From assembly GCA_963782525.1 (NCBI GenBank), contig CAWAKC010000001.1:288001-352000 (forward strand): a stretch of DNA of 64,000 bases, read 5' to 3'. The DNA is from Candidatus Bathyarchaeota archaeon. Lineage in GTDB: Archaea > Thermoproteota > Bathyarchaeia > Bathyarchaeales > Bathycorpusculaceae. The translations under genes were made by a program, and so were the position numbers. Of the stretch, positions 27,040 through 60,578 are shown piece by piece. The notes beneath the pieces were generated by a model. It was not told the DNA's origin. It searched no databases and saw only the letters and a program-made list of their open reading frames with translations. Positions within the stretch are counted from its first letter, which is position 1; each line of letters opens with the position of its first letter.

Positions 27040-27747
27040 TTAAAGTTTGCCAATTACTGATTCATGATCATCTACCTTTTCAAAATATCTTTCTTCTAAA
27101 GGCACGTAAGTCCTTGCATCAATCCGTATGGTTTTTGCACACTTGGGTCAATCATACTTCAGCGCTTTATCCTTTTGAACTAGATTGTTAATAACTTCAA
27201 TTTTAGGAAGATAAACCTCAAACACATACGGTAATTCAGTATTGCCACTACAGTGAGGACACGATATCTTTAAACTCAAAGTTTTTCCCTCCAGCCCTTT
27301 TGGAATTGACTTTCTAATTGGTAGGATAACATTAGCAATTGCAAGCTCAATTGAATTATAATTTTCCAAGAGCAAAATATCATCAGAGTCTTTGGTAACA
27401 AAGCCTTTTAAGTTTACATTCTTTTGACTGATTGGAATAATTATTGGTGTATCCTTGTTTGTGGAAAACTTAGCTTTCAAATTCCTTCTAATAGTCTTAA
27501 CTGCTAATGCGAAGCCTAACTCTTGATTAACAAATTGAGAGGACTTTCCTTTTTCTGTTAGCAACACAATCATAAAGGAACTATTAATGATTTCATTCTG
27601 AATGCGCAGCTTAAACCCTTCCTCGAAGCTAAGGTAGTTTTCCGCTTTGTATGGTCTAAACTGGACTATTCTTCCTAATGAATCATGAAGAAGTTGTGCT
27701 AAGTTATTGTCTTGTCCAGCGTAAGAGATGAAAATATTATAGTTCAA
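27040..27747 (-). CDS. TIR-domain protein with C-terminal Zn ribbon, interrupted by in-frame TGA (27148-27150)
   Basis: IFISYA..SQFVNQELGFA TIR motifs; CPHC..[TGA]PKC; 35 further sense codons to TAA at 27040. Confidence 0.75.
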
Positions 27748-27888
27748 GTACCATCCCTTTGGTTATTTAGGTAAAACATTCTTTTCCCTTTATTCAGCTA
27801 TAACTTTTTTGTAGGATTAACGTTCCAGAATTAGTTTTTAGAGGAACCTTATATGCAGAGTTGACCAGTCTGGGGTCCTAACTTAGGA

Positions 27889-28212
27889 TTGGTCAAAATG
27901 AAAATCAAAGGTTATCGATTTGAATGTGAGGTCTGTAATAACTCTGTAGTATCCAGTATCCAAGTTTTCTTTAGAAAGAATGGAGAGGTATCCTATGCTA
28001 GGGCTAGGCATATTGGAGCGGATAAGAAGTTCTACTACCATCAACAAAGCCTAGAATATGTCAACAGAAAACTTGGAGAAATAGTCCATATTGACCATGG
28101 TCAAGCTGCTAATATCCAATACATTGGTTAAACTAAGGGAGAATTAAGTAAAGATATTAAATTGGAGCCTTCGGCGGGATTTGGACCCGCGACCATTACC
28201 TTACCAAGGTAA
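27889..28212 (+). pseudogene. Putative N-terminal fragment (intN) of an SSV1-type split integrase
   Basis: 80-aa CxxC ORF pointing into the tRNA-Thr 3' end. Past one TAA (28129) the same frame reads TKGELSKDIKLEPSAGFGPAT across the tRNA antisense. Confidence 0.5.
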
Positions 28213-28239
28213 CGCCCCACCGGGCTAGGCTACGAAGGC
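28163..28239 (-). tRNA. tRNA-Thr(GGU)
   Basis: GCCTTCG/CGAAGGC acceptor stem, TTACC-TTGGTAA-GGTAA anticodon arm, T arm GCGGG-TCCAAAT-CCCGC, encoded CCA. Confidence 0.95.
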
Positions 28240-28564
28240 GTTTTTCTTTTTCTTCTTGAAAGTGATTGCGGTATGCAATAAAGAGCTTACGGTTACAGCT
28301 CTGCGTCGCAACAAATGAATCCAACAAAACACAATCTTTCATAAAACCGAGGCCTCCACAACCAATTCACTTTCAACATACTCCCACATTACACCCACAC
28401 AGCCCAACATACAATCCATGATAGCAGTGTGGACCAATCCATCTCTCCACACTCAAACCACAAAAGAAAAACAACCCAAACCAAAAAAGCAAACAAACCC
28501 AAACCCCTAAGTGTAGTGTGCAATTATTAGCGCCCACACCCACACAAAACAAAAAGTCAATGGC

Positions 28565-28580
28565 AAATAAATATTAAAGC
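28565..28580 (+). promoter_or_regulatory. Probable BRE/TATA of tRNA-Leu
   Basis: AAATAAATATTAAAG about 35-45 bp upstream of the mature 5' end. Confidence 0.4.
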
Positions 28581-28612
28581 AACCTAACCTATTTCACACT
28601 ACGCAATCTTGT

Positions 28613-28700
28613 GCAGGGGTCTCCAAGCCAGGTCAACGGAGTAGGGCTTAGGACCCTATCGCGTAGGCGTTCGTGGGTTCGAATCCCACCCCCTGCACCA
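28613..28700 (+). tRNA. tRNA-Leu(UAG)
   Basis: GCAGGGG/CCCCTGC acceptor stem, TAGGG-CTTAGGA-CCCTA anticodon arm, long variable arm, GGTTCGAATCC, encoded CCA. Confidence 0.96.
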
Positions 28701-29008
28701 TATATATAAATAAACTCTAGGGGTTCCCCTAGCGAAACTTTAGTTTTCTTTAGTGGCCTATCTCGACTGTGCCTTTGCCTTCGACAATGAAAAAAAGACA
28801 TCAAAACAAGACAACACTCACTATTTCTATTTTAAAGTAATGATTTGCGATTGTTTTTATGCAAAGATAACTTGATGTCGACTTTGGAATTTATTTGCAC
28901 TCACGATAGGTGAGGACATATTAAATACGTCTCAATATGATAGGAACCTTTGTTGGCAAATAACCTTCTGATAGATTATTTGTCAAACAGAATAGGAGAA
29001 AAAGAAAA

Positions 29009-31777
29009 ATGAATTTTTATAATAAAAAAATTAAGCTTTTTGCATTGATTCTCATACTGTCTATTGCTTTATCAGCGCTTTGTGCTTCTTTGCCAAACGC
29101 TAATGCGCATACACCGCCATGGAACGTTCCAACCTCAGCTTACGTTACTTGTGCGCCAGATCCCATTGGGGTTGGTCAACCAACCACTATCGTGGTATGG
29201 GTTGACAGATACTCACCCTTTGCAGGTGGCGGCGTAGGTCAACGTTGGGATGGCTTTACAATAAACATTACATCGCCTAGTGGAAAAACACAGATAATCG
29301 GTCCGTTCGAATCTTCAAGCGACGTCGGCAGCGACTGGAAATCGTTTACCCCTGATGAGGTTGGCACATACACCATCGTTTTCAGTTGGCCAGGAGAAAC
29401 AGCTAAACCCACAGCTGCCCTCCAAAACACTGGCTCCGCAACATTTGACATAAATAACAACGGCGATTTCTACCAAGGCTCGACAAGCGAACCCTACAAA
29501 CTAACCGTTCAAACAGACTCCGTTCCAACATGGCCAGAATCACCTATCCCCACAGATTATTGGACTAGACCGATAAGCGGTGCGAACAGAGATTGGTCAT
29601 CGCTCCCCAGTAACTGGCTTTTGGGTTCATGGCTATACCAGAACGTCCAACCAGCCGGCACCGGACCGAAATCCCCGCATATCCTCTGGTCGAACCCCAT
29701 TATCCCAGGCTATCCAGGAGGGCTCGTTGACGCACAATGGCCAGACATACCAGTAGATGCCAACGACTATGAGGGTCCATGGTCATCGCCGATAATCATG
29801 GAAGGAAAAATCTACTACAACTCTCCAGCCGTAGCAGACAGCAATCAATATGGGTACTACTGCCTCGACCTCCAAAATGGACAACAAATCTGGTATAAGA
29901 ACGGCACCGATAACGGACTCAACAACCCAGTAACATCCATAACAGGATCTTTTGGCGGTATTCTTCCCAGTCTCTCTCAACAATATCTCAGACTGACGAA
30001 CGGCCAACTATACTACTATTACTCAGTCAACGGACAGGGAGTGCTCGCTTATCTTTGGATACAATCAGGCACCACATGGTACATGCTTGACGCGACCACC
30101 GGAAACTTGATACTGACATTGATAAACGTGCCAGGCGGTACAGCCGCAACGGACGAAAACGGAGACTTGCTAAAGTACAGCTATAACGCGAATACAGGAA
30201 CGATTCTCTGCTGGAACTCCAGCCAAGCCATTTACCCCGGCGGAGTCACGGGGACAGGACAGCAACAATGGAAGCCTCGTATTGGCGGAGTAATCGACGC
30301 AGTTAATGACATCTCATGGCTCAACGGAACGTGGTCTGCAAGCCTGGGACAAACAATCAACCAGGCACTGTCTAAGCCGCACTCTGGATATACGATGAAC
30401 GTAACGGACGCCTCGCTGAAGAATTTGCCGGGAAACTTGGTTGGTGTTGTCGCTGACAATCGAGTGCCAAAGATACTGTTCGGTACTAACTTCCCTATAA
30501 CCGTTAACACTGGTTCAAGCGTCGGTTTAGACTATTTCCAAGCGTGGGCAGTAAAGATAAATGACCACGCGACAGACTACAGCCCTAATCCTGGCTACCC
30601 AAGCAACCTACAGAACAATCTTGGATTCACGACAACTTTGCTGTTCTCAAGAAATATACCAGTTCCAATTGCTGGCAAGAATTATACTTGGAGCATGACT
30701 GGATATAGCTACAGCGATGATGTCTTCTGCATAACTTGCAAGCAAACAGGCCAAATATGGGCCTTCAGCTTAACAACAGGAGAACAAGTCTGGGGACCAA
30801 CAACGACGCTGCCAGGTGGACCTATGGCATTCTACGGAGTTAGCACCAACTTCTATGACGGCAAGTGCATCGTAAACTCGGGCTACAGCGGACAAATAGC
30901 TGCTTACAATGCAAAGACCGGCGAGTCACTTTGGACATACAACTCCACTGCCGACGCACCCTACGAAGGCTACTACGGACCCAACATGCCGCTTAGCATA
31001 GGCGCAATATGCGATGGAATGATCTACACATACTCCAATGAACACTCACCAACAAAGCCACTGTGGCGCGACTCTTACCTGCGATGCATCAACGCAACAG
31101 ACGGAACAGAAATGTGGAAGCTACTCGACTTCAACCAGGGCTTAGGACTTGCAGACGGCAACATCGTAACATGCGACGAGTACACCAACAACATATATTG
31201 CATCGGTAAAGGACCAAGCGGACTTACCATAGATGCACCGAAAGGTGGCGTAACACAGGGAAACAGCTTTACAATTACGGGTATAGTCACCGACCAATCA
31301 CCAGGTGCAGTAGCATACGCAAAGAAATTCGGCCTCGTGAATGGATTGCCAGCGGTTTCAGATGATAGCCAACAGGCTTTCATGCAACAAATCTACCAGC
31401 AACAGGTAAAGCCCACTGATGTAAAGGGCGTTCCAGTAACGATCGATGCACTTGACCCCAACGGCAACATAATCAACCTCGGTACAGCTACTAGCAACGC
31501 CAACGGCTTCTATAGTTTCCAAGTTAATCCAGGCATGCTTACAGCGGGTGCAGGAACATACCAGGTCATCGCAACCTTCGCAGGCTCTAACTCTTACGGT
31601 TCATCAAATGCAGAATCTGCTTTCACACTCAATTCCGAAGCAACAGTCTTACCAACCGCTATACCTCAAACAAACCTAGCAACAACAGCAGACATAATGA
31701 CGTACATAGTTGCTGCAGCAATCGCAATAATCATCGCAATAGCCATAGTCGGAGCGCTTATACTCAGAAAGCGATAA
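29009..31777 (+). CDS. PQQ-like beta-propeller cell-surface protein
   Basis: Signal peptide, PTDYWTRP, repeated xLxTGxxxW blades, C-terminal Ig-like domain, TM and RKR; paralog of 38723..41593. Confidence 0.85.
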   Translation: MNFYNKKIKLFALILILSIALSALCASLPNANAHTPPWNVPTSAYVTCAPDPIGVGQPTTIVVWVDRYSPFAGGGVGQRWDGFTINITSPSGKTQIIGPFESSSDVGSDWKSFTPDEVGTYTIVFSWPGETAKPTAALQNTGSATFDINNNGDFYQGSTSEPYKLTVQTDSVPTWPESPIPTDYWTRPISGANRDWSSLPSNWLLGSWLYQNVQPAGTGPKSPHILWSNPIIPGYPGGLVDAQWPDIPVDANDYEGPWSSPIIMEGKIYYNSPAVADSNQYGYYCLDLQNGQQIWYKNGTDNGLNNPVTSITGSFGGILPSLSQQYLRLTNGQLYYYYSVNGQGVLAYLWIQSGTTWYMLDATTGNLILTLINVPGGTAATDENGDLLKYSYNANTGTILCWNSSQAIYPGGVTGTGQQQWKPRIGGVIDAVNDISWLNGTWSASLGQTINQALSKPHSGYTMNVTDASLKNLPGNLVGVVADNRVPKILFGTNFPITVNTGSSVGLDYFQAWAVKINDHATDYSPNPGYPSNLQNNLGFTTTLLFSRNIPVPIAGKNYTWSMTGYSYSDDVFCITCKQTGQIWAFSLTTGEQVWGPTTTLPGGPMAFYGVSTNFYDGKCIVNSGYSGQIAAYNAKTGESLWTYNSTADAPYEGYYGPNMPLSIGAICDGMIYTYSNEHSPTKPLWRDSYLRCINATDGTEMWKLLDFNQGLGLADGNIVTCDEYTNNIYCIGKGPSGLTIDAPKGGVTQGNSFTITGIVTDQSPGAVAYAKKFGLVNGLPAVSDDSQQAFMQQIYQQQVKPTDVKGVPVTIDALDPNGNIINLGTATSNANGFYSFQVNPGMLTAGAGTYQVIATFAGSNSYGSSNAESAFTLNSEATVLPTAIPQTNLATTADIMTYIVAAAIAIIIAIAIVGALILRKR

Positions 31778-31799
31778 TAAAAGCTAATTAACCAAAATC

Positions 31800-31820
31800 A
31801 ACCCCCTTTTTTAGTTTTAA
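31800..31820 (+). terminator. Oligo-T archaeal terminator candidate
   Basis: CCCCCTTTTTTAGTTTT about 25 bp after the stop codon. Confidence 0.4.
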
Positions 31821-32366
31821 ATCAACAGAAAAGGTATTTGGATCGCGAACTCTGATAAATGTTCACTTAGAATTTTCAACTTCGTTCTCCTTCAGTGTTT
31901 CCAGAGCCTCAGTGTGAACCTTGTATTTAGGCTTCTGTAAGAAAAGCAACTGCATTAACTTCACGAAGGATAGCCATGGCGCCAATTAAATTGGATCGTT
32001 TAGGTCTTACCTTTAAGGTGATTGTGTGAGACCGTTACAATCCTTGTGCTCCGGAAAAGGCATAGCAATCCATAAACAAACATAACTTTCCCTCTTTTTT
32101 TGAATTGGAGAAATAATCGGGATATATCAGTAAAAAAAGAAGTCCCGCAAAGATCGAGAGTTTAGTGACCGAATCGATAACAAGAACGTGGTAGACGCAA
32201 ACTATACAACCAACATTATTTTTTCCTCAAAAAAAGGGAAGCGTGAGATTTTGCCCACTTCATTCTTTCAGAATCCACAAAGATTACTTTTCTCACAGCA
32301 GAATTTTTAGCAAAAAAAGGAGAAAGTGGCTGCGAAGAAACTATAATTGGCGATATCTCCCGCCGA

Positions 32367-32394
32367 TCGGGGTTCGAATCCCACCCCTGCACCA
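32367..32394 (+). repeat. tRNA-Leu 3' copy R1 (att-like)
   Basis: TCGGGGTTCGAATCCCACCCCTGCACCA versus tRNA TCGTGGGTTCGAATCCCACCCCCTGCACCA. Confidence 0.92.
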
Positions 32395-32525
32395 AAAAAA
32401 GTAACCTGAAAACCGCTGCTAAACATTATTATTCAATAGTTTTTTAAGGCGACATAACAATAACCTGTCATTCACCGTAGGCATTTACCTATGGTTGGGA
32501 GTTAAAGAATAGCCTTATCCAGGAC

Positions 32526-33641
32526 ATGAAAATCATGAATAAAAAATTGCTCTTAACTATTATTATTGCCTTTTTCCTTTTTTCAGTTGTAATAATTCCA
32601 CAAATAGCCAATTGCCAAACAGCAACAACACAGTCAAGTATAACGCCAACACCAACGGGAGCAACCGAACAAGGAAGCTCTCTTAATTTATTACTCATGG
32701 TTGGAATCATCGTTGCCGTGGTTGCAGTTATTGGAGCCGCATCTGCATTTATTGTTATGAAGAGAAGGGTGAATGAAAAAAGCCTGAGAAAAGTTTCTGC
32801 CCGTGCCTTCGAAGAGTGGGTGATTAAAAGATTTAATGGAAAACCAAGCGATTTATCTTCGGGAGTAAATGGGTTTACACAAGGAGGTCAACCGCTTTTG
32901 ATCATACAATCCGATCAGGTCAGTTTGGCTGAGGTTGAAGACTTTGTCAAAGTATTAGTAAAGGGAAGAGCACAAAAAGGCACAATATTGGCTTTAAATT
33001 TTGATAAAGATGCGATAGAAGGAAAAATAGCGGCCATGGATAATGGAATTGAACTTCAACTGTTACCCATAAATGAACTGTTGAATAAACGCTTCTCTAA
33101 GAGGATCGAAAGCCTTGCCCTTTCGCCAGTGACCTTTGAAGCTCCACTTACAGGTATTTCAGAAAACCCTCTGACAGAAACAAGATCATTTGAAAGAATG
33201 CCAAATATAACTCAAAATGAAGGTCTAAAACCACGAGTCTTTATATCAAATAGCAACACTAAGGTGGCTGATCAAGTGAAGAAAATGGTAGAGTTTCTTC
33301 ATTATGACTATGTTGTGGGTGACAAAAAAGAAACATCGGTGCCGATTTCTGATAGTAAATTTGGGTTAATGAAAGACTGCGATTGTGCGATAATAAATAT
33401 CGCTGCTGCTGAACAAGAGAGAAGGTACAGTGGACTTTACGTCCTTAATTCAAATGTCACTTCAGAGATCAATGCGGCTTATCTAAAATATAACACGCAA
33501 GTGGTTTTGCTGGTTGAGAGAAAAATAGACCTCCCCCCAAATCTTAAGGGTCTAAAAAGAATCGAATATGAAAGTGATGATCTATCGTTTAATGCTGCAA
33601 TGGATTTGGAGAAAATATTGGCTGACTTTAGAAAACTATAG
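32526..33641 (+). CDS. Membrane-anchored Mrr-like + CAP12/Pycsar-type TIR domain protein
   Basis: Two N-terminal hydrophobic segments; SARAFEEWV..GVNG Mrr-cat-like region; RVFIS..CDCAII..NVTSEIN..VLLVE..LPPNLKG TIR-like region. Confidence 0.7.
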   Translation: MKIMNKKLLLTIIIAFFLFSVVIIPQIANCQTATTQSSITPTPTGATEQGSSLNLLLMVGIIVAVVAVIGAASAFIVMKRRVNEKSLRKVSARAFEEWVIKRFNGKPSDLSSGVNGFTQGGQPLLIIQSDQVSLAEVEDFVKVLVKGRAQKGTILALNFDKDAIEGKIAAMDNGIELQLLPINELLNKRFSKRIESLALSPVTFEAPLTGISENPLTETRSFERMPNITQNEGLKPRVFISNSNTKVADQVKKMVEFLHYDYVVGDKKETSVPISDSKFGLMKDCDCAIINIAAAEQERRYSGLYVLNSNVTSEINAAYLKYNTQVVLLVERKIDLPPNLKGLKRIEYESDDLSFNAAMDLEKILADFRKL

Positions 33642-33692
33642 GAGATTGGGTTCTCAAAGCCTGCTTTGAACCAAACGTATACACTGTTTTGA

Positions 33693-33722
33693 GGGGGTTA
33701 GAATCCCACCCCCCCTGCACCA
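33693..33722 (+). repeat. tRNA-Leu 3' copy R2
   Basis: GGGGGTTAGAATCCCACCCCCCCTGCACCA. Confidence 0.88.
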
Positions 33723-33897
33723 ATTTAATTAAAAATAGCAAGCCCTTGGTTGGCAATGTTAGATAGTTATTTTTGCCTATCGTGTAAGATAACGATGGAT
33801 AAAAATAGAAGTTGGAACGATGAAATCATAGTAGTAACAGAATCTTTCGAAGGTCTGTTAAGTCTCTGTTTAACTTGGAGCAGGAACGTCGCCCAAA

Positions 33898-34119
33898 CTA
33901 TACTTCATTGTAGAGGTTGCAGGTTGGACACTTTAACACAACGTTCTTGAATTTTCCTTCGATGATAGTCTCGCCTACTTTTGCCCCACAATTGCCACAT
34001 AGATAATCAGTATTACCACCTTTGCTTTTTATTACTGGCAAGGTTTTAGATGCGAAAACAGTTTTGGTTCCCTTTTTGGGTTCGGGTATAGTTTTTAATT
34101 TTCTGTCCATTTTGTCCAC
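33898..34119 (-). CDS. Small Zn-finger protein
   Basis: YLCGNCG..LKCPTCNLYN. Confidence 0.7.
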   Translation of the reverse strand: MDKMDRKLKTIPEPKKGTKTVFASKTLPVIKSKGGNTDYLCGNCGAKVGETIIEGKFKNVVLKCPTCNLYNEV

Positions 34120-34252
34120 TTACTTCGGTTTTTATTGGTTTGACTTAGATTAAAAGTTTATTGCTTGCTGATTCTTTGCGCATAAATTTCCGCGAAAAAG
34201 AAAAAGGACATTACTAGGAAAAAATGAAAAGATTGGCGACATCACCGCTATG

Positions 34253-34281
34253 TCGTGGTTGGAATCCCACCTCCTGCACCA
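34253..34281 (+). repeat. tRNA-Leu 3' copy R3
   Basis: TCGTGGTTGGAATCCCACCTCCTGCACCA. Confidence 0.88.
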
Positions 34282-34448
34282 TAATCTAACCCTACTTCAT
34301 TTTCACTACAGAAATTATAAAGCCAAAAATGAAAATCAAAAAAGAAGCATTAGATCGGGTATCTGTTCTATAGGTCACCTTTCTAAATCAAACAAGGTGA
34401 GGCTTGTTTGGTTGGTGGTAACAATGGCTTTTGAATTTAACGCCAAGC

Positions 34449-35582
34449 TTATCGGTTTTCGATTGAAACAAATGAACGGTTGAATTCACCAACGTACTTT
34501 GATTCTGGACGCAAAAGAACAGCATCTTCATACTGTTCAATTATATTGGCTACCCAACCAGTAATTCTGCTTGAAGCAAAAAATGAAGTGAAATACTCTT
34601 TTGGCACTCCTAAAGCATCCATCGTAACAGCAGCATAAAAATCAACGTTGGGATAAATTTTCTTCCTTCTGTAAACTATTTCTTCAATCTTGATACATTT
34701 ATTATACAAGCCTAATGTTCTGTCACGATGGCAAAGGTCTTCCACCATACCTCTCAAATGTTTAGTTCTAGGGTCTTGTGCCCTGTATATCCTGTGACCA
34801 AAACCCATAATCTTTTGCTGGTCATCTAACAACCCGTGGATGTATTCTTCCACTTCTTCGTCAAGTTTAATGTCATCAAGCATCTCCATCACTTTCTCAC
34901 TAGCTCCACCATGCAATGGTCCTTTGAGTGTCCCAATGGCTGCAGTCACAGCTGAATACATGTCTGAATTAGTGCTTGCTGTTACGCGGGCAGCAAAGGT
35001 GGAAGCATTAAATCCATGATCAATATGAAGAGTCATGTAACGATGTAAAACTGTGGTTTCTTTCTCGTTTGGTTCAGCACCTTTAAACATGTACAAGAAG
35101 TTTTGGGCAAAGCTGAATTCCGGCTTAGATTCGGGAACACTCTGGTTAAGGCGGCTTCTGTGGATAGTAGCCACTATTACTGGAACTTGGGCTATTAGGC
35201 GTGTAGCTCTTCTCATGTTTGCGGCATCAGAGAAGTCGTCGCCGTCAGGATCGTATTCGCCAAGATGAGAAACTTCAGTTCGTAAAATATCCACCGGATG
35301 ACAATGTTTAGGGGAACGTATGATACTTTCAACTATTGGAGCTGGAAGTTTCATGTCAGAAACAAGCTCAGTTTGATAAATCTCTAGTTCTTTCTGGTTT
35401 GGGAGTCTCTTATGAACTAGAAGGAAAGCCATTTCTGTATAAGTAACTCGTCCAACAAGATCATCGATGTTATACCCTAAATAGTAAAGAGCTCCATTAT
35501 AATCCACGTAGCTGATTCGGGTTTCAGCTGCAGCAACATCTTTCAGTCCGCGAACAACGACTCTCTCAGAGTTAATAGTCAT
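34449..35582 (-). CDS. Citrate/2-methylcitrate synthase
   Basis: DHGFNASTF, GPLHGGA, GFGHRIY..DPR, PNVDFY. Confidence 0.93.
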   Translation of the reverse strand: MTINSERVVVRGLKDVAAAETRISYVDYNGALYYLGYNIDDLVGRVTYTEMAFLLVHKRLPNQKELEIYQTELVSDMKLPAPIVESIIRSPKHCHPVDILRTEVSHLGEYDPDGDDFSDAANMRRATRLIAQVPVIVATIHRSRLNQSVPESKPEFSFAQNFLYMFKGAEPNEKETTVLHRYMTLHIDHGFNASTFAARVTASTNSDMYSAVTAAIGTLKGPLHGGASEKVMEMLDDIKLDEEVEEYIHGLLDDQQKIMGFGHRIYRAQDPRTKHLRGMVEDLCHRDRTLGLYNKCIKIEEIVYRRKKIYPNVDFYAAVTMDALGVPKEYFTSFFASSRITGWVANIIEQYEDAVLLRPESKYVGEFNRSFVSIENR

Positions 35583-35827
35583 ACAAATTCATCCTTACGT
35601 ATTTTAGCACATGTACCTTTACGAAAAAAGTAGAAAGCTAACAAATCCATTTCTATTGGAAAAGTGATTATTCCACCTTTTACCTAAACACACGGTCTCC
35701 CTTACCACTATCGACTATTAAACCCTTGGTTGACTAAGAAACAAAAAAAGCGTAATAGGGTACTACGCCGTCGCTTAGGAAAAGACGACCCCTAAAGCGA
35801 AATAATACAAAAGAAAATTTTCAGCTT

Positions 35828-36253
35828 CTAAGCGAAGCTAACAAATTTTTTCGGTTGATTACTCGTTGCAAAAGTCCAGAAGTGCGCTGTGCATTTGATG
35901 ATTTTAAGGAGTATCAGCCCTGGGTTTTCTGGTGTTAGTCCTGCCTGCTTTAGGAATGGTCGGGCGTCAAGAAGCTTCTTTTTCATTTCTATATCTTCAA
36001 GGAATTCAACTGTGCCTGTTACCCTCATTTGCTGCATTTCTTTGCTTTTAGGATTAAAGAAGCATACTTCAACCTTAGGATTTGCTTTCAACTGCTTGTA
36101 GATATCTTTTCCAGCGGCAGAGCTGTAATATAGACCTGACTTGTCAGCGTACCAAAGTTGAAATCCTCTCACCCGAGGTTGTCCATCATCTACAGTTGCT
36201 AAGAAGCCTATTGGATTTTCATTTGCAAACTTGATATATTCATCAAAATCCAT
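35828..36253 (-). CDS. Pyridoxamine 5'-phosphate oxidase-like FMN-binding protein
   Basis: LATVDDGQPRVR..KQLKANPKVEVCF..RVTG. Confidence 0.88.
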   Translation of the reverse strand: MDFDEYIKFANENPIGFLATVDDGQPRVRGFQLWYADKSGLYYSSAAGKDIYKQLKANPKVEVCFFNPKSKEMQQMRVTGTVEFLEDIEMKKKLLDARPFLKQAGLTPENPGLILLKIIKCTAHFWTFATSNQPKKFVSFA

Positions 36254-36401
36254 CTAAATCACAAAATCTACTATTTCACCCCAATAGTAATAACTTTTGG
36301 TTTACCATAAAACCAGACCTTTATTGCTTTATCAATCGCCATTAGCAAAGCACATAATATAACCCAAATGAATGAGAGGTATGCGGGAGACATCTCCATT
36401 C

Positions 36402-36432
36402 TCAGAGGTTCGAATCTCACTCTCATTCAACA
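36402..36432 (+). repeat. Highly degenerate tRNA-Leu 3' copy R4
   Basis: TCAGAGGTTCGAATCTCACTCTCATTCAACA, preceded by GGAGACATCTCC, which resembles the R1/R3 flank. Confidence 0.6.
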
Positions 36433-36540
36433 TCGTAAAAATTACTTTTTGCACCCTCTAATTAAAAGAAGAAGAAAATGCTGCCCCACAACACTTCTTC
36501 TTTCAATTATGGAAGCATAACCAAGGAGAACACTTGGAAA

Positions 36541-36747
36541 CTATAATTGATGATAGACGCTTACCAGCAGGACGGTAGAAGTTGTTGTTGTTGCTGCTGC
36601 TGCAACTGCATTCTGCAGACCGGTTGCAACAACAATCAAAGACAAACCCAAATTGCCAAGCTTACCCTTACTGAAACACAAGTCAAACCCATAGAAGATA
36701 ATGATGCTAATGATGATGCAAACCAATTTTGCACACAACATTATCAT
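36541..36747 (-). CDS. Possible small membrane protein
   Basis: Two hydrophobic stretches and a low-complexity AAAATTTT tract; could be non-coding. Confidence 0.25.
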   Translation of the reverse strand: MIMLCAKLVCIIISIIIFYGFDLCFSKGKLGNLGLSLIVVATGLQNAVAAAATTTTSTVLLVSVYHQL

Positions 36748-36783
36748 CAGTCAAAACTAAACTCAATCTTTGATCCAAAAAAA

Positions 36784-37704
36784 TCATGCTTTATCTTGCA
36801 ACGTCGAGCAAATTAATTTGTTCACTTCGGTAACAGCCTTAATTGACACTTCCAGCATGTCGTCACTTGGTTCTTTGGTGGTTAAATGTTGAAATGCCAA
36901 TCCAGGTGCGACTAGAACTTTTGTGATGGGGGAATCTTTGTATTTGCCACTTAACCGCAGGAGCTCGTAGCTGATTCCAGCGATGACGGGGATTAGGAGA
37001 ATGCGGTAGGCAAAGTTGACTAGGAAGCCGAGATTTGGCATTATTGTGAAAAGGACGATGCTGATTATCAGCACAATGAAGAGAAAACTGGTGCCGCATC
37101 GGGGATGCAGACGTGAATATCCTTTTACGTGTTCAACGTCCATGAGGGCGCCTGCTTCATGTGCATGGATAGCCTTGTGTTCCGCACCATGATACATCAG
37201 CACCCGTTTGTATTGACCCCACAGCGAGAGAATAGACAAATAACCAACAAACATGGATAAGCGAATTACAGCCTCAACCACATTGAAGACGACACCCTTA
37301 AGGTCCAACCAAGTTGAAAGCAAGAAAGGAACCAAAAAGAAAACAGCCATTATGCCTGCGACGCCACCTACGAGCAGAGCGATTTCTCCCACGCCAAACT
37401 CTAATTTTTCCGATTCTTTGCCCTCTTCACCCTCAATTTCAAACGCTGTGGAAGCCGAAAACATCATGGTCTTAACGCCCACGATTAAGCTTTCAACCAT
37501 ATTCACCACGCCCCTAAAAATTGGCCACCCCAAAATCCTGTGTTTTTCAGAGTAGGGCGTGATTTGTTTGATGTCTGTTACTATTTCATTTTTGGGGTTT
37601 CTGACGCAGGCTACCACATGTTTTCGGGAGCGTATCATTACTCCTTCGATTAATGCTTGTCCACCAAATGCAAGGGACGGTTCTTTCCTTAAATTTTCTG
37701 ACAT
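36784..37704 (-). CDS. DUF1385 membrane protein
   Basis: GGQALIEGVM, YHGAEHKAI, HPRCGTSF, QxLTTKEP. Confidence 0.9.
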   Translation of the reverse strand: MSENLRKEPSLAFGGQALIEGVMIRSRKHVVACVRNPKNEIVTDIKQITPYSEKHRILGWPIFRGVVNMVESLIVGVKTMMFSASTAFEIEGEEGKESEKLEFGVGEIALLVGGVAGIMAVFFLVPFLLSTWLDLKGVVFNVVEAVIRLSMFVGYLSILSLWGQYKRVLMYHGAEHKAIHAHEAGALMDVEHVKGYSRLHPRCGTSFLFIVLIISIVLFTIMPNLGFLVNFAYRILLIPVIAGISYELLRLSGKYKDSPITKVLVAPGLAFQHLTTKEPSDDMLEVSIKAVTEVNKLICSTLQDKA

Positions 37705-38722: not shown

Positions 38723-41593
38723 TTATGGTCGTTTTCTAAGTATCAGAATTCCAACGATTGCAATGGCGATTATTATGGCGATTACTCCTGCCGTTATGTA
38801 TGTCATCAGGTCTGTTGTTGTTACTGCTAATGGCTGAGAAGTTGATGTTGGAGCTGTTGTCAGTGCAGAGTTAATCGTGAAGGCAGATTCAGAGTATGAT
38901 GATCCGTAAGATTCCGATCCTACAAATCTAGCGATGACTTGGTATGTACCCAATCCAGCAGCAAGCATATCTTGGCTTACTTGGAAGTTGTAAAAGCCGT
39001 TGGAGTTAGTGGTGGTTGTGCCGAGGTTGATGATGTTGCCGTTGGGGTCTATAGCATCGATTTTGACTGGAACTCCTGTTAAGTTGCTTGGCAAGCCTTG
39101 CTGCTCATATAGGTATTCCATAAACGCTTCTTGGCTATCATCCGATACTGCTGCCACCCCATTTTTGAGGCCGAATTCAGATGCGTATGCTAACGCTCCT
39201 GGAGATTGGTCGGTGACTGTACCTGTTATTGTGAAGCTGTTGCCCTGTGTTATGCCGTTTTGTGGTGCGGAAACGGTGGTTGCGCTGGGTCCTTTGCCGA
39301 TGCAATAGACTAAGTTGTCATATTGACTTGCAGAAACGAGGTAGCCGTCAGCTATGCCCATACTCATGACGAAATCGGCTAGTTTCCAGATTAGTGTTCC
39401 ATCAGTAATGTTGATGCAGCGGACGTAGGATTGACGCCAAAGTGGGTTGGTGGGTGAGTGTTCAGTTGAGTAGGTATAGATCATACCATCACAGACTGCG
39501 CCGATACTCAGAGGCATGTTGTTTCCGTATGAGCCTTCAAACCTGTACGGGGCTGAAGAAGCATCATATGTCCAAAGGAATTGTCCTGTGGTTGCTTCAT
39601 AGGCGTCGATAGTTCCGGAATATTGAGAGGTGACAATTACTATACCGTAGTAGACGCCAACACTCTGACCGTAGTAGTCAAATTGGTTGGTTTCTGTCAT
39701 CGCTGGCGTTGGTCCCCAAAGTGCGTTTCCAGTCGATAATTGATATGCCCAAAGCTGTCCGGTTTGTGCGCATCTTATGAAGAAGATGTCGCTGCCATAG
39801 TCAACTCCCGTGACGGACCAGGTGTAGTTTCTGCCAGGCAATGGAACGGTAATGTTCTTGTTGTAATTCAGCGTAAGCGTGTAGCCAAGGTTAGTGTTTA
39901 CAGATGAGTCTAGTGTAGGCCAAGGACTATTCGCTGTTGCATGTTCGTTTATGTTTAGAAGGCATAAACCAATTAAATCGCCGCAAGTAGATCCGCCTAT
40001 GCTAGTGTATGTGGTGGTCACTGATGAGCCAAATATCTGCTTTGGAACGCGTTGAGCGTCTTGCACTATTTGCATGGATCCTGTAACTGTAGTTCCAGGC
40101 GCACCTGCTGAAGAAGCGGCGGGCAGAGCCTTGAATTCGTCACTGGTTATGTTCATAGTATATCCTGAGTGCGGTGTCTTCAATGCTGTTTGCAGAAGTG
40201 GATCGAAGCTTGCGCCCCATGTAGTACTAGCGTTTACCCATGCTGTGTCGTTGACGGCGTCAATTACTGCTCCGAGTGCTGGACGGAAAACTTGGGCTCC
40301 ACTTGATGTTGCTCCGCCTGGATAGATGGCTTTGCTTGAGTTCCAGCAGAGGAATTGGCCTTTGGCTGAGTTGTAGCTGTACACTAGTAGGCTTCCATCT
40401 TGGTCGGTTGCCGATGTGCCTGAGGGAACATTTTTCAGAGTCAATATTACGTTTCCAGTAGTTGAGTCAAGCATGTACCATGTTGATTGGGAAGTAGTGA
40501 AGGTTGTAGCTGCTTGAGCCTGCATCCAGAGAAATGAGGCTATTCCCTGACCATTAACTGAGCTATAGTGATATAATTGGCCGCATGTTAAGATGTAGAA
40601 TTGTTCAGCATAAGAAGGAGCAGTGGATGCGCTGCTGGGTTGTGTGATTGAAAAGGGGTTGTTTATGCCGTTGTCAGTTCCGTTCTTGTACCATAATTTT
40701 TGTCCACTGTACAGATCCATGGCGTAGTATCCATATTTGTTACTTTGTTCAGTTATCGGCGGGTTGTAATAGATAATTCCATTCATGATTATAGCTCCAC
40801 GCCATGCGCTTTCGTAGTCATTGATGTTGTTTGATATACCGGGCCAGCTTCCATCAGCGATGCCGCCAGGATAACCTCTGCTTTCGGGTGCATTTGCCAT
40901 TATGGGTTCTGCCCAAAGTACGTGTGCACTTTTTGGTCCTGTTCCCCATCTTTGGAAGTTATTAGTTAGCCATGTGCCCTGAAGCCAGTTGCTGGCAAGC
41001 GATGACCATTGTCTGTTTTGGCCGTTTACCGGAATTGTCCAGTAGTCTGTTGGAAGTGGAGGTTCAGGCCAAGTTGGGATTGGATCAGCCTGTACAATTA
41101 GAGAAGTCGGTCCGCTAGTGGCGCCAAGGAAGATATCCCCAATACGTGCTGAGGAATAAGTAGCCTCGCTTGAAGTTACAGTTCCGCCTGGCCAGCTAAA
41201 CCACATTGTATAGTTACCGACTTCAGTTGGGGTAAATGTTTTAAAGTCACTGGCAACTGCACTAGAACATTTCCATGGTCCTATCGTTGTGTTTGTTCCG
41301 TCTGGCTTCTGAATTGTGATTAAGAAGCCATCCCAAGTTTGTCCATTTTCACCGCCTGATGTTGGAGAATATCGGTCGAGAAAAACGACTATTGTCGCTG
41401 TTTGGTTAACTCCAACTACTCCGGGTGCCACTGTAATATATGCGTTGGTTGGAACTTTCTCTGGAGGATTACTTGCGTCAGTCGTTGGTGTCAGGATTGT
41501 TGAAGACGCCATTAAAAGTATAAAGAATATTGCGATCGTCATAGCTACAATTTTATTCTTTTGTGTTTTCATTTTTTCATTTCCTTTATTCAA
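38723..41593 (-). CDS. PQQ-like beta-propeller cell-surface protein (paralog)
   Basis: Same architecture and motifs as 29009..31777 (PTDYWT, NGTDNG, STEHSPT, CIGKGPS, DPNGNIINLGT). Confidence 0.85.
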   Translation of the reverse strand: MNKGNEKMKTQKNKIVAMTIAIFFILLMASSTILTPTTDASNPPEKVPTNAYITVAPGVVGVNQTATIVVFLDRYSPTSGGENGQTWDGFLITIQKPDGTNTTIGPWKCSSAVASDFKTFTPTEVGNYTMWFSWPGGTVTSSEATYSSARIGDIFLGATSGPTSLIVQADPIPTWPEPPLPTDYWTIPVNGQNRQWSSLASNWLQGTWLTNNFQRWGTGPKSAHVLWAEPIMANAPESRGYPGGIADGSWPGISNNINDYESAWRGAIIMNGIIYYNPPITEQSNKYGYYAMDLYSGQKLWYKNGTDNGINNPFSITQPSSASTAPSYAEQFYILTCGQLYHYSSVNGQGIASFLWMQAQAATTFTTSQSTWYMLDSTTGNVILTLKNVPSGTSATDQDGSLLVYSYNSAKGQFLCWNSSKAIYPGGATSSGAQVFRPALGAVIDAVNDTAWVNASTTWGASFDPLLQTALKTPHSGYTMNITSDEFKALPAASSAGAPGTTVTGSMQIVQDAQRVPKQIFGSSVTTTYTSIGGSTCGDLIGLCLLNINEHATANSPWPTLDSSVNTNLGYTLTLNYNKNITVPLPGRNYTWSVTGVDYGSDIFFIRCAQTGQLWAYQLSTGNALWGPTPAMTETNQFDYYGQSVGVYYGIVIVTSQYSGTIDAYEATTGQFLWTYDASSAPYRFEGSYGNNMPLSIGAVCDGMIYTYSTEHSPTNPLWRQSYVRCINITDGTLIWKLADFVMSMGIADGYLVSASQYDNLVYCIGKGPSATTVSAPQNGITQGNSFTITGTVTDQSPGALAYASEFGLKNGVAAVSDDSQEAFMEYLYEQQGLPSNLTGVPVKIDAIDPNGNIINLGTTTTNSNGFYNFQVSQDMLAAGLGTYQVIARFVGSESYGSSYSESAFTINSALTTAPTSTSQPLAVTTTDLMTYITAGVIAIIIAIAIVGILILRKRP

Positions 41594-57813: not shown

Positions 57814-59316
57814 CTATAACTTTGAATTTTTAAGTCTTGCGTTTTTGGAAGAATCTGATTGTGAATATAATTGCGTGATCGAGTTGAGGCTGTTTTCTGT
57901 GTTAGCAAGTTTTTCTTTGAGTTTAGCGATGTTTGCTTTTGTATGTGTCAGGGTTTTGTTTGTGAATGAGATTGCTTTTTCGACCTCTGCGGGTGATGGA
58001 CCGCCTTGTACTTTATAGGTTTCGATTAGTTTGCGGGGATTTGTGCATTCAAGTATGTCTGCTTTTTTGATAGTTAATTTTATTCCTGCGCTTTCCTGAG
58101 CTACTTTCTGGAGCATTTCAGGGGTCGCATCTAGTAAAGTCTGTTTTGAATCAATAAGTCCCTTAACTAAAGCGCCGATTATTTTGTGGGACGTCCGGAA
58201 AGCAACATTGTACTTGCGTACAAGCATGTTGGCGAGTTCGGTTGCGCCCACGAAGCCTGCTGCAGCTTTGCCTTCTACGTTTGAGGAAACTTTAACGTTA
58301 GGAATAAGTTGTGTGAATATGTTCAGGGAAGCTTTGAGGTTGTCGGTTGATGCCCAAAGTTTCGGCGTTATCTCTTGAAAATCAAGGTTGTAAGTGGTCG
58401 GCAAACTTTTTAGAGCTGCGGCTGAAGCAACAAAATCGCCCAACGCATAGCTGGCTCTTGCACGGATAACTTCGAGGACTTCAGGGTTCTTTTTCTGAGG
58501 CATGATGCTACTGGTTGAGGTGAATTCGTCAGGTAACTCAACCGTCCCAAACGCGGGTGAGCTCCAAATTATCAGGTCCTCAGCTAACCGGCTTAAGTTC
58601 ACCGCAAGCAAAGTTAATGCAGATTGAGTTTCGATGATGAAGTCTCTGCTGCCCACTGCGTCAATCGAATTCTCCAAAACTGCATCGAAGCCTAAGAGTT
58701 CTGCAGTTAATTTGCGATTGATGGGGAAGCTTGTTGTTGCGAGTGCTCCAGCGCCCAAAGGACACAAATTGACCCGCTCGTAAACAGATTGTAATCTTTG
58801 TAGATCTCGTCCTAACCCGTTTACGTGGGAAAGGAGGTAGTGGGCGAAGGTGACTGGTTGGGCTGGTTGCAGATGAGTGTAGGCTAAGATGACTGTTTCA
58901 GTGTGTTTACTCGCTGTTGCCAGGAGGCTTTCCTGCATGTCGAGCACTTGATTCATGATGCCGAGCAACTCTTTGCGCAACGCCATACGGATAGCAGTTG
59001 TAACTTGGTCGTTTCTGCTCTTGGCAATATGCAGATTTCCGCCAACCTCTGGACCCGCCTCGGCTAGAACCGCTTCTTCTACTGCCATGTGGACGTCTTC
59101 AGCGTTGGGGTCAATTTTTTGGCTGTCTATTTTTTGGAGGGCGGAGAGGATTTTTGCGCCATCTTGCCACTGGATGATTTTTTGCTCCATGAGCATGACA
59201 ACGTGGGCTTTGTTGATGGCTAAAACAGCATCAGCTAAGCGAGTATCATCTTTGCGTGAGGAACAGAATTTGGCGACGTCTTCTCTTACATCGACCAATC
59301 TTCCTCCATGCAGCAT
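57814..59316 (-). CDS. argH: Argininosuccinate lyase
   Basis: KSRNDQ, YTHLQPAQP, SSIMPQKKNP. Confidence 0.96.
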   Translation of the reverse strand: MLHGGRLVDVREDVAKFCSSRKDDTRLADAVLAINKAHVVMLMEQKIIQWQDGAKILSALQKIDSQKIDPNAEDVHMAVEEAVLAEAGPEVGGNLHIAKSRNDQVTTAIRMALRKELLGIMNQVLDMQESLLATASKHTETVILAYTHLQPAQPVTFAHYLLSHVNGLGRDLQRLQSVYERVNLCPLGAGALATTSFPINRKLTAELLGFDAVLENSIDAVGSRDFIIETQSALTLLAVNLSRLAEDLIIWSSPAFGTVELPDEFTSTSSIMPQKKNPEVLEVIRARASYALGDFVASAAALKSLPTTYNLDFQEITPKLWASTDNLKASLNIFTQLIPNVKVSSNVEGKAAAGFVGATELANMLVRKYNVAFRTSHKIIGALVKGLIDSKQTLLDATPEMLQKVAQESAGIKLTIKKADILECTNPRKLIETYKVQGGPSPAEVEKAISFTNKTLTHTKANIAKLKEKLANTENSLNSITQLYSQSDSSKNARLKNSKL

Positions 59317-59351: not shown

Positions 59352-60578
59352 TTAAGAAAAGTTAGGTTTTCTTTGCCTTGGTTTTTTGCTCGCCTTCTTG
59401 AGCGAGTTGTACATTCTTGTCTGCAAACCCCAGAGTTCGATGAAGCCTTTGCTGTAGGATTGGTTGAAGCTGGTTTTGATGTTGTAGTTAGCGAGGTTCT
59501 TGTCGTATAGCGAATTTGGGGAACTGCGTCCGATGACTAAGAGACCGCCTTTGTAGAGTTTCAGTTTTACCTCTCCTGTGACGTTTTCTTGTGAGTGGTT
59601 GATGTAGGCGTCTAAGTCGTCTTTTAAGGGGTCAACCCATAGCCCTGCGTATGCAAGGAATACCCATTGGGAGTCGATTTGCTGTTTGAAGAGGACTTGG
59701 TGACGGGTCATGACCATTTTTTCGAGGTCTTTGTGGGCTTCCAAGATGACGGTGGCTGCGGGGCACTCGTAGACTTCGCGTGATTTCAACCCTACGATGC
59801 GGTCCTCGATGTGATCTATGCGGCCTACACCGTTTCGGCCAGCAATATTGTTAACTTCCTCTATGAGCGCAAGAGGAGCCATTTGTTTACCGTTAACCGC
59901 AACTGGCACACCAGCCTCAAAGGTGATGGTTACGATTTCTGGTTTATCAGGCGCCTTTTCCGGGGCAACAGTCCATTCGTAAGCGTCGTCTGGCGGCGCC
60001 TGACTGGCATCTTCAAGCAATCCACATTCGATGGCTCGCCCCCAAACGCTTGAGTCTATGCTGTATTTTTTAGCCGAGTCCGAGACGGGGATGCCTTTGG
60101 TTTTGGCATAAGCAATTTCTTCCTCGCGCGTTAAGCCCCATTCACGAACTGGAGCTATGATTTGTTTTTCTGGTGCTAGGGCGCCTAAGGTTATGTCAAA
60201 ACGAACTTGATCGTTCCCTCTGCCCGTGCAACCGTGAACTAAACCGGTGGCGCCTTCTTTTTCGGCGATTTCAACCATTTTCTTGGCGATTAAGGGTCGG
60301 GAGAGGCTTGTGCTGATGGGGTATTTGCCTTCGTAGAGGGCGTTTGCTTTTATGGCTGGGAAAATGTAGTCTTTGACGAATTCTTCTTTGGCGTCTATTG
60401 AAAAGTGTTTGATGGCGCCGAGTTTTTTGGCTTTTTCCTCAGCTGCTTTGAGGTCTTCGCCTTGACCAACGTCTACGGTTACTGTAATGACTTGTGCTTG
60501 ACATTTTTCTTGGAGGTACTTGATTAACACGGATGTGTCTAATCCGCCTGAATAAGCTAATACAAATTTATCGGCTAT
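59352..60578 (-). CDS. argG: Argininosuccinate synthase
   Basis: ADKFVLAYSGGLDTS lies upstream of the called GTG; HGCTGRGNDQVRF; KSREVYE. Only ATA 60578 fits as the start. Confidence 0.95.
   Translation of the reverse strand: MADKFVLAYSGGLDTSVLIKYLQEKCQAQVITVTVDVGQGEDLKAAEEKAKKLGAIKHFSIDAKEEFVKDYIFPAIKANALYEGKYPISTSLSRPLIAKKMVEIAEKEGATGLVHGCTGRGNDQVRFDITLGALAPEKQIIAPVREWGLTREEEIAYAKTKGIPVSDSAKKYSIDSSVWGRAIECGLLEDASQAPPDDAYEWTVAPEKAPDKPEIVTITFEAGVPVAVNGKQMAPLALIEEVNNIAGRNGVGRIDHIEDRIVGLKSREVYECPAATVILEAHKDLEKMVMTRHQVLFKQQIDSQWVFLAYAGLWVDPLKDDLDAYINHSQENVTGEVKLKLYKGGLLVIGRSSPNSLYDKNLANYNIKTSFNQSYSKGFIELWGLQTRMYNSLKKASKKPRQRKPNFS

Follow-up and report, generated by a model that had tools for sequence, protein, structure and literature searches.

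Elements with a tyrosine recombinase can be arrayed in tandem at a single site, and the integrase of archaeal elements can be lost once they are integrated, as described in excerpts of two reports (PMC6563490, PMC8371274). The stretch of DNA analysed here, referred to as the window, comprises 64,000 nucleotides (G000:C1:288001-352000) of a Candidatus Bathyarchaeota genome (G000; 2.87 Mb, 12 contigs). Behind its intact tRNA-Leu(UAG) gene, the last ~25 nt of that gene are repeated four times, all on the same strand, as found by direct reading and by scans, and the repeats bound four small gene-bearing segments. The locus is probably a tandem accretion array of integrase-free islets, bounded by attachment (att) sites and left by a class-wide integrase family; the archaeal class of that family is probably the Bathyarchaeia. 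The Bathyarchaeia occur in abundance and are for the most part uncultured; little has been described of their mobile elements.

So far as those excerpts go, the locus resembles archaeal tandem tRNA arrays in that one tRNA site is reused, with direct repeats of the 3' part of the tRNA, and in that the integrase gene is whole when integrated (non-partitioning) and lost later. It is not of the SSV type (class I): there is no split into int(N) and int(C), and the integrases of two relatives (G005 and G017) are whole in the integrated state. Unlike the known archaeal tandem arrays, all four units here are tiny (0.5-3.7 kb) and free of integrase; three of them have a palindromic arm found across the class, and two keep both arms. 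A literature search, supplements not covered, gave no description of these arms, of the element family or of such arrays in Bathyarchaeia.

Among bacterial systems, the nearest analogue is provided by integrase-less cis-mobilizable elements (CIMEs) that accrete with integrative and conjugative elements (ICEs) at tRNA genes. In streptococci, CIMEs, ICEs and IMEs (elements both integrative and mobilizable) include tandem att-flanked units without recombination genes, found with or derived from autonomous elements at the 3' end of a tRNA gene. The streptococcal CIME system is bacterial and linked to conjugation, and its mobilisation has been demonstrated by experiment, whereas the present locus is archaeal and its mobilisation hypothetical. 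Islands with metabolic genes in Dehalococcoides are reportedly stacked, by site-specific integration, at the 3' end of the tmRNA gene ssrA; here the domain of life and the target gene are different, and probably the recombinase as well.

The integrons reported from archaeal genomes belong to the canonical IntI/attC kind, most of them being arrays that lack IntI, according to an excerpt of a third report (PMC9668308). The original prediction had called the present locus integron-like. It does share with integrons, and with clusters of attC sites lacking integron integrases (CALINs), arrays of small, often one-gene units that each end in a conserved recombination site. As far as that excerpt describes them, it also shares the lack of a recombinase in cis in most arrays and, in relatives, a cargo that includes toxin-antitoxin pairs and GNAT-type genes. 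However, the label does not fit. There is no IntI gene in the window, and the family integrases score weakly, below threshold, on integron-integrase models. By eye, the sites do not look attC-like, being the 3' end of a tRNA plus a 12-nt palindrome, and the anchor is a tRNA gene rather than an attI site. Furthermore, the genes lie in both orientations with upstream regions of their own instead of being co-oriented, and the autonomous relatives are plasmid- or virus-like elements with MCM.

The tRNA-Leu(UAG) array and its attachment sites

The array comprises the features below, given in window coordinates; the two flanking genes are listed last.

28613-28700, plus strand: tRNA-Leu(UAG), intact, anchor of the array on the attL side (ARAGORN and Rfam)
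28701-28740, plus strand: proximal end (P' arm) of segment 1, from sequence comparison
28701-32370, plus strand: segment 1, taken to be the youngest, with the cargo open reading frame (ORF) 29009-31777
32329-32394, plus strand: c1 site, with type-2 arm GCTGCGAAGAAAC..., palindrome GGCGATATCTCC at 32349-32360, 10-nt spacer and copy
32371-32394, plus strand: core of c1, a tRNA-Leu 3' copy with one C missing
32395-33695, plus strand: segment 2, with ORF 32526-33641
33696-33722, plus strand: c2, a tRNA-Leu 3' copy with one mismatch and two extra C
33723-34256, minus strand: segment 3, with a 73-aa zinc-ribbon ORF at 33898-34119 (minus)
34235-34281, plus strand: c3 site, with type-2 arm, palindrome GGCGACATCACC at 34235-34246, spacer and copy
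34257-34281, plus strand: core of c3, a tRNA-Leu 3' copy with two mismatches
34282-36406, minus strand: segment 4, with citrate synthase at 34449-35582 (minus) and a PNPOx-like flavoprotein at 35828-36253 (minus)
36383-36432, plus strand: c4 site, taken to be the oldest, with type-1 arm GCGGGAGACATCTCC, spacer and degenerate copy
36407-36432, plus strand: core of c4, a heavily degenerate tRNA-Leu 3' copy
28163-28239, minus strand: tRNA-Thr(GGU), conserved left neighbour of the hotspot in relatives (ARAGORN and Rfam)
36784-37704, minus strand: DUF1385 gene, the original downstream flank of the tRNA, common to G010, G023 and G002

An ungapped search allowing up to three mismatches matched only the tRNA itself and c3, and none of 100 shuffles gave a match; c1 and c2 contain indels and were recovered by gapped and core scans. 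The copy c4 aligns column for column with a perfect 25-nt copy that lies in the same place in G002, next to the DUF1385 gene, and its upstream arm is common to the two genomes. It was accepted as a real copy because of this orthologous perfect copy and arm, as c4 alone would be insufficient. The degeneracy of c4, too great for significance by itself, is a point in favour of the view that the matches reflect chance similarity or an assembly artefact. That view is nevertheless extremely improbable, given the empty shuffles, the ~25-nt length of the copies, the recurrence of the arrangement of segments 2 and 3 in G010 at 96% identity and the orthologous copies in relatives. The four same-orientation copies of the original prediction are thus borne out, and the segments measure 3.67, 1.30, 0.53 and 2.12 kb (segments 1 to 4), as had been claimed. 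The claimed decay with distance from the tRNA holds only roughly: c1 is the best copy (one change) and c4 the worst (at least eight), but c3, with two changes, is better preserved than the nearer c2, with three. Searching 27800-37000 with Rfam at E ≤ 1 gave nothing beyond the two tRNAs and two sub-threshold noise matches.

A conserved arm that does not belong to the tRNA was found upstream of c1, c3 and c4, and overall at 14 of the 17 displaced copies aligned from the window and its relatives. This distal arm consists of an A-rich and then a G-rich stretch, a palindrome, a spacer of 10-11 nt and GGTTCRAATCC. The palindrome GGYGAYATCNCC stands ~10 nt upstream of three of the four window copies; upstream of c2 the palindromic arm is absent. 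Two types of arm can be told apart, namely type 1, GCGGGTGAYATCTCC, and type 2, ATTGGCGAYATCNCC with GCTGCGAAGAAAC before it. The pattern GGYGAYRTCNCC-N9-13-GGTTCRAATCC was present in 57 of 401 genomes sampled from the class, against 0/401 for the reversed control; of 40 other members of the genus, 23 had it. Copies of the 3' ends of other tRNAs in G000 (Arg-CCU, Cys and Leu-GAG-like) likewise have the arm in front of them.

The proximal (P') motif is AT-rich, with GGGGGTTTGT followed by TGGCGAYR 29-32 nt past the end of the copy, and was found at 10 of 55 sites compared with a background of 1%. The first 23 nt of segment 1 (TATATAAATAAAC...) are the same as in the integrase- and MCM-bearing element of G017 and in G022, and its P' arm, GGGGTT...TAGCGAAAC, is a decayed form of the GGGGGTTTGT..TGGCGAYR motif. 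Segment 3 starts with the P' motif TGGCAATG ~30 nt after c2 and ends in a P arm. Segments 1 and 3 therefore have both arms and copies and no integrase, as a CIME does.

It was considered that arm and copy together might form a tRNA-like minihelix or hairpin. This idea was rejected, as the DNA of the window sites (n = 3) folded no better than shuffles (z -0.5, -0.5 and -1.7) and the 5' motif GCGGGTG showed no covariation with the acceptor strands of the various tRNAs targeted; only the G017 site folded well (z -4.0). Judged from sequence, the arm is more likely a protein-binding site than a hairpin.

Two repeated stretches flank the array. One, C/A-rich and ~200 bp long, lies between tRNA-Thr and tRNA-Leu (28355-28555) and is repeated in G000 at C6:99894-100077, C3:291382-291580 and C7:4977-5152 (84-89% identity), and also in relatives. 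The other, between c4 and the DUF1385 gene (36569-36759), overlaps a small ORF for a hydrophobic 68-aa product (36541-36747, minus) and recurs at 88% identity at G000 C9:187540-187707, as well as in G001, G010 and G012.

Junctions at the same tRNA gene in relatives

The tRNA-Leu(UAG) locus was compared across 16 species of the genus, and at least one displaced copy was found behind the tRNA in 13 of them. In G010 the tRNA abuts segment 2: homology resumes at 32370, and segments 2 and 3 are 96% identical to those of G000. In G001 it abuts segment 3, with homology from 33695. A decayed copy precedes the TIR-like gene in G022, where homology starts at 32371. Homology restarts at 36407 in G010 and at 36404 in G023, and the segment 1 copies of G002 and G010 begin at 28670 and 28677, respectively. 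The sequence of c1 with its right flank equals the tRNA end of G010 with its flank, as predicted by an insertion of segment 1 into the tRNA. The original prediction that older units had been pushed outward is supported by these arrangements. At c4, the left side (the arm and beyond) resembles G002 and G012, and the right side is 94% identical to G010 and G023. The relatedness thus switches at the core, and therefore the occupant at c4 was exchanged there. The comparison of the locus across relatives, as originally proposed, shows that gain, loss and swapping of segments map to the copies, with exceptions that are discussed below.

Segment 1 is 92-93% identical in G002, G010 and G023, but is located elsewhere in each of them. 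Because its identity in G002 (93%) exceeds that of the core DNA next to the locus (79-83%), the sequences suggest that segment 1 was recently transferred. In G002 and G010 it lies within a unit of ~3.9 kb with different flanks, which extends from a decayed arm and copy to a type-2 arm and T-arm; over its right 270 nt and its arm, segment 1 of G000 departs from the sequence in these two genomes. G023 was tried as an empty site for segment 1 and rejected, as the flanks there are copies of a multi-copy gene family and not att sites.

Assembled Logan contigs of public peat, permafrost, soil and sediment runs served in place of reads; matching runs contained 0.17-0.35 of the sampled words, and four runs (X1, X2, X4 and X9) were compared with the window. 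Segment 1 was covered by contigs with few differences in three of the four runs (X1, X2 and X9). Several contigs contain the tRNA end and then, at 28700-28704, continue with sequence unlike the window, and one X1 contig matches 31084-32387 and adds 395 letters foreign to the window. These contigs are compatible with varied occupants in nature. Bins 32638-33371 of segment 2 were uncovered in X1, X2 and X9, which was not used as evidence. The circular or empty-site junctions proposed as a check did not appear: no contig joined two copies in the four runs, which says little about excision, as contigs drop rare forms.

Integrases in relatives and the origin of the islets

As the original prediction had it, no integrase is visible in the window. 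PF00589 had no match there, and no integrase-like pieces were found beside the window copies.

Integrases do occur at the same tRNA in relatives. Three of the 16 (G005, G008 and G017) have a near-full integrase gene immediately downstream of tRNA-Leu(UAG), its C-terminus pointing to the tRNA. In G017 a 443-aa integrase (PF00589) and an MCM-like gene come directly after the tRNA, and the element ends ~14.1 kb further on with GGCGATATCGCC, 11 nt and a perfect Leu copy. In G005 a 315-aa integrase (PF00589) belongs to an 11.3-kb unit whose terminal arm is related. The integrase of G008, beside the tRNA at a contig end, is 79% identical to that of G017. Since the arms of the window match the ends of such integrase-bearing elements, the copies are integration scars, as had been proposed. 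Proximal segment ends bear C-terminal integrase remnants in G023, where the remnant heads a pentose-phosphate block, in G014 and in G005; in G012 one directly follows a displaced copy. Elsewhere in G000, remnants lie beside tRNA-Cys and beside a tRNA-Arg(CCU) copy. The clusters of the atlas nearest to the family integrase are mostly labelled Candidatus Bathyarchaeota.

To count integrases, ORFs with a length of 70 aa or more were scanned (224 of the 267 listed, the other 43 lying past the last copy, at the greatest distance from the tRNA), and tblastn with three family integrases followed. Among the 25 att-bounded segments of G000 and the 13 relatives with copies, two have an intact integrase, three a C-terminal remnant and 20 neither. 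A further census covered 40 loci with 44 arm sites, taken from 115 matches listed to the class-genome pattern. The matching anchor tRNA lay within the fetched DNA at 12 of the 40 loci, which gave 15 bounded segments of 0.5-10 kb: one with an intact integrase, one with a truncated one, one with a small remnant and 12 with none. The remnants of this census often come directly after an arm copy.

G000 itself encodes one intact integrase of the family (C6:36038-37279), which shares 50% identity with that of G005 and 43% with that of G017. It adjoins tRNA-Pro(GGG) and not tRNA-Leu. An exact 21-nt copy of the tRNA-Pro(GGG) end with a related upstream arm lies on a different contig (C10:215890-215910), and the element of this integrase probably spans an assembly gap. 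Two further loci show other forms of such scars. In G005, a second, near-complete tRNA-Leu(UAG) (95 nt, 94% identity) follows the first after 0.26 kb (C12 16101-16464), and a 37-aa integrase remnant lies between the two, ahead of the intact integrase element. In G000, a tRNA-Arg(CCU) with an intron (C11:54299-60436) is followed by a 47-nt copy reaching back to the anticodon loop (58128-58176), a C-terminal integrase remnant (58214-58327) and an arm-type copy (60388-60436). Since the 47-nt copy and the arm-type copy are both present, two kinds of att scar stand behind this one tRNA.

Taken together, these data favour the following account. A family of integrative elements with a tyrosine recombinase, widespread in the class, would recombine with the T-arm and 3' end of tRNA genes. 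At each insertion into tRNA-Leu(UAG), the tRNA would be restored from element DNA, and the old 3' end would be displaced outward as an attR scar, consisting of an element-derived arm with the GGYGAYATCNCC palindrome, a spacer of ~10 nt and the last ~25 nt of the tRNA. Four insertions in turn would have brought in segment 4 first, then 3 and 2, and segment 1 last. Integrase and replication genes, tRNA-proximal in intact members, would then have been lost, leaving accessory-gene islets of 0.5-3.7 kb, and among species the islets would be added, deleted or replaced by crossovers in or beside the att cores. We infer the order of these events, a crossover within the T-loop, and a loss of the integrase by deletion rather than its absence from the islets from the start. 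In support of the last point, a decay series is documented in the family, with relatives that range from an intact integrase over a C-terminal remnant to nothing, and loss after insertion would therefore be the simplest account of the four units. This series also gives direct support to the original suggestion that the units are remnants of larger elements.

The locus has most of what marks a tandem array. The tRNA is intact and followed by 3' repeats in the same orientation, an integrase is found at the same att site (in relatives only), and occupancy varies among relatives with junctions at the repeats, apart from some exceptions. No integrase or remnant was found inside the units of the window array.

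The two-armed state of segments 1 and 3 raises the alternative that the islets are at present non-autonomous cassettes mobilised in trans, by a capture resembling that of CIMEs, of miniature inverted-repeat transposable elements (MITEs) or of integrons. Small two-armed units without integrase would be cut out as circles and integrated at the T-arms of tRNAs, with the integrase supplied from elsewhere in the genome or by a visiting element. This is possible but on balance unlikely. In its favour, segments 1 and 3 bear P' and P arms of the types of autonomous elements. The identity of segment 1 in G002 above that of the flanking core, its different flanks and its ~3.9-kb unit ending at arm and core point the same way. 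So do the segments lacking any integrase trace (20 of 25 at tRNA-Leu(UAG), 12 of 15 in the further census) and the intact family integrase encoded in G000. Against it, no joint of an excised circle was found in the four contig-only read sets, the sole intact integrase of G000 stands beside tRNA-Pro(GGG), and c2 to c4 are mutated, c4 being probably dead as a substrate. Segment 1 is moreover a mosaic and not a clean copy, as seen from its right 270 nt and arm, and the series of decaying remnants in relatives accounts for integrase-less units without any activity in trans.

Units of one or two genes between arms in other genera and families also speak for mobilisation in trans. In a different family of the class (G141:C74:1-7290), four arm sites 1.2-1.9 kb apart bound single genes, and the cargo comprises three beta-lactamase-fold paralogs and an APH-like kinase with GNAT. 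The cargo between arms is an ABC transporter in G200 and a PQQ-like protein in G375, and no integrase was found among the 34 ORFs scanned in the three arrays. A similar point is made by a 0.5-kb HicAB unit that stands behind four different tRNA-Leu genes (CAG, GAG, UAA and UAG), with local direct repeats each time. In G000 (C9:227642-228321) an intron-bearing tRNA-Leu(CAG) is followed by the HicA/HicB-like pair of 0.53 kb and then by a tRNA 3' copy of 36 nt. Of 100 other genomes sampled in the genus, about 30 have the unit, at 75-87% identity. However, the local repeats are long, the unit has no palindromic arm, and its mechanism may differ from that of the arrays; the unit may move by another route. 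About 10 of 20 fetched HicAB sites have no tRNA copy nearby.

A more elaborate form of mobilisation in trans would be a dedicated, tRNA-anchored gene-capture system. Its units would be 0.5-4 kb in size, often with one gene, and would have a short proximal arm and a conserved distal arm of ~45-70 nt; a dedicated family of tyrosine recombinases would act in trans, excising circles and inserting them at the tRNA T-arm. Such a system is rather doubtful. If it existed, the distal arm would be the functional counterpart of the integron attC site, and surface proteins, defence genes, toxin-antitoxin pairs and genes of central metabolism (citrate synthase and the pentose-phosphate block) would be shuffled among species.

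Several observations weigh against accretion followed by integrase loss, and some of them concern the integrase. Over the whole window, tblastn with the three family integrases gave nothing at E ≤ 0.01; the best score in the four segments was E 0.69, compared with E 1e-7 to 4e-20 for positive controls in the same searches. As this search detects integrase remnants of 25-77 aa elsewhere but not in the window segments, the removal would have been unusually clean if every segment once had an integrase. The window segments were also considered as deletion derivatives of the G017 or G005 elements and rejected in that role, there being no coding similarity. The retention of both arms on segments 1 and 3 would be unexpected under random decay, and segment 2 may derive from an element of another type, given that no palindromic arm precedes c2. 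Other observations concern breakpoints off the copies. The homology of segment 1 in G002 and G010 stops at about 32100, away from any copy; that in G023 (28795-31830) lies among paralogous genes without att copies; and the homology of segment 3 in G010 stops at 34203. The PNPOx, citrate synthase and zinc-ribbon genes are found elsewhere as genes only. In G012 the citrate synthase gene adjoins a PEMT gene with no copy between them, and the history of segment 4 is therefore not simple.

The breakpoints off the copies could also be taken to mean that no site-specific recombinase was involved. The copies would then be fragments of tRNA pseudogenes, and the differences between species would result from homologous recombination or deletion between short repeats, by which direct-repeat losses are indeed possible. 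This explanation is very unlikely. Every copy spans one and the same tRNA portion of ~25 nt, the non-tRNA arm that also ends integrase-bearing elements is present at three of the four, integrases stand at the same tRNA in three of the 16 relatives, and at the tRNA-proximal position new segments turn up whose levels of identity are foreign.

Cargo of the islets and exchange of metabolic genes

In segments 1 and 2 the genes are on the plus strand, in segments 3 and 4 on the minus strand. The cargo had been predicted from sequence as a PQQ-like surface protein, a TM-Mrr-TIR protein, a zinc finger, citrate synthase and a PNPOx-like gene. The PQQ_2, citrate synthase, PNPOx-like and zinc-ribbon assignments stand. 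The assignment of the segment 2 protein stands in part: its TIR domain is below threshold here, and its Mrr domain was not confirmed, the sole hint being a match at E 0.09 in one ortholog.

The ORF of segment 1 (29009-31777) encodes a 922-aa PQQ_2-like beta-propeller protein that is secreted or anchored. A PQQ_2-like paralog of 956 aa, 55% identical to it, lies just past the original flank (38723-41593, minus). The family of these proteins is diverse (28-55% identity), and members of it recur between arms, as cargo, in G375 and G001. Bathy-6 genomes contain many PQQ-domain genes, which have been attributed to lateral transfer, with no vehicle named in the excerpt of the report concerned (PMC11697101). 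Units like segment 1 are a candidate vehicle for such transfer.

The ORF of segment 2 (32526-33641) encodes a 371-aa membrane protein with a TIR-like C-terminal domain. The TIR match (E 1.1e-3) is below the Pfam cut-off, which the G022 ortholog exceeds (29.1 bits), and PADLOC and NCBIfam assigned no family to the protein. A second TIR-type gene lies near the hotspot, just upstream of tRNA-Thr (27148-27747, minus), and encodes a 199-aa TIR_2 protein (E 7e-9).

The place of segment 4 is occupied in G010, G023 and G002 by a pentose-phosphate gene block, with a transaldolase, a split transketolase fused to ribulose-phosphate epimerase and a PRPP-synthase-like gene. By tblastn, no transaldolase, transketolase or ribulose-phosphate epimerase was found in the whole of G000. 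Transaldolase was not found in G001, G012, G013 and G021 either, in a search that was not itself accompanied by a positive control. For citrate synthase, G001 and G012 gave a match and G010, G002 and G023 did not, a pattern opposite to that of the pentose-phosphate block in the five relatives tested.

The locus and its relatives define the attachment site of a class-wide element family, composed of a core in the T-arm, a distal arm with the palindrome and a proximal arm. They also mark tRNA-Leu(UAG) as a hotspot of accessory-gene turnover between species. Its cargo includes members of the expanded family of PQQ-like surface proteins, a TIR-like membrane protein and citrate synthase, and in relatives the transaldolase, transketolase and epimerase block. 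If the small two-armed units are mobile in trans, they would represent an archaeal analogue of cassette capture that uses tRNA genes. Metabolic inferences drawn from single metagenome-assembled genomes of this group may depend on which islets a strain happens to carry.

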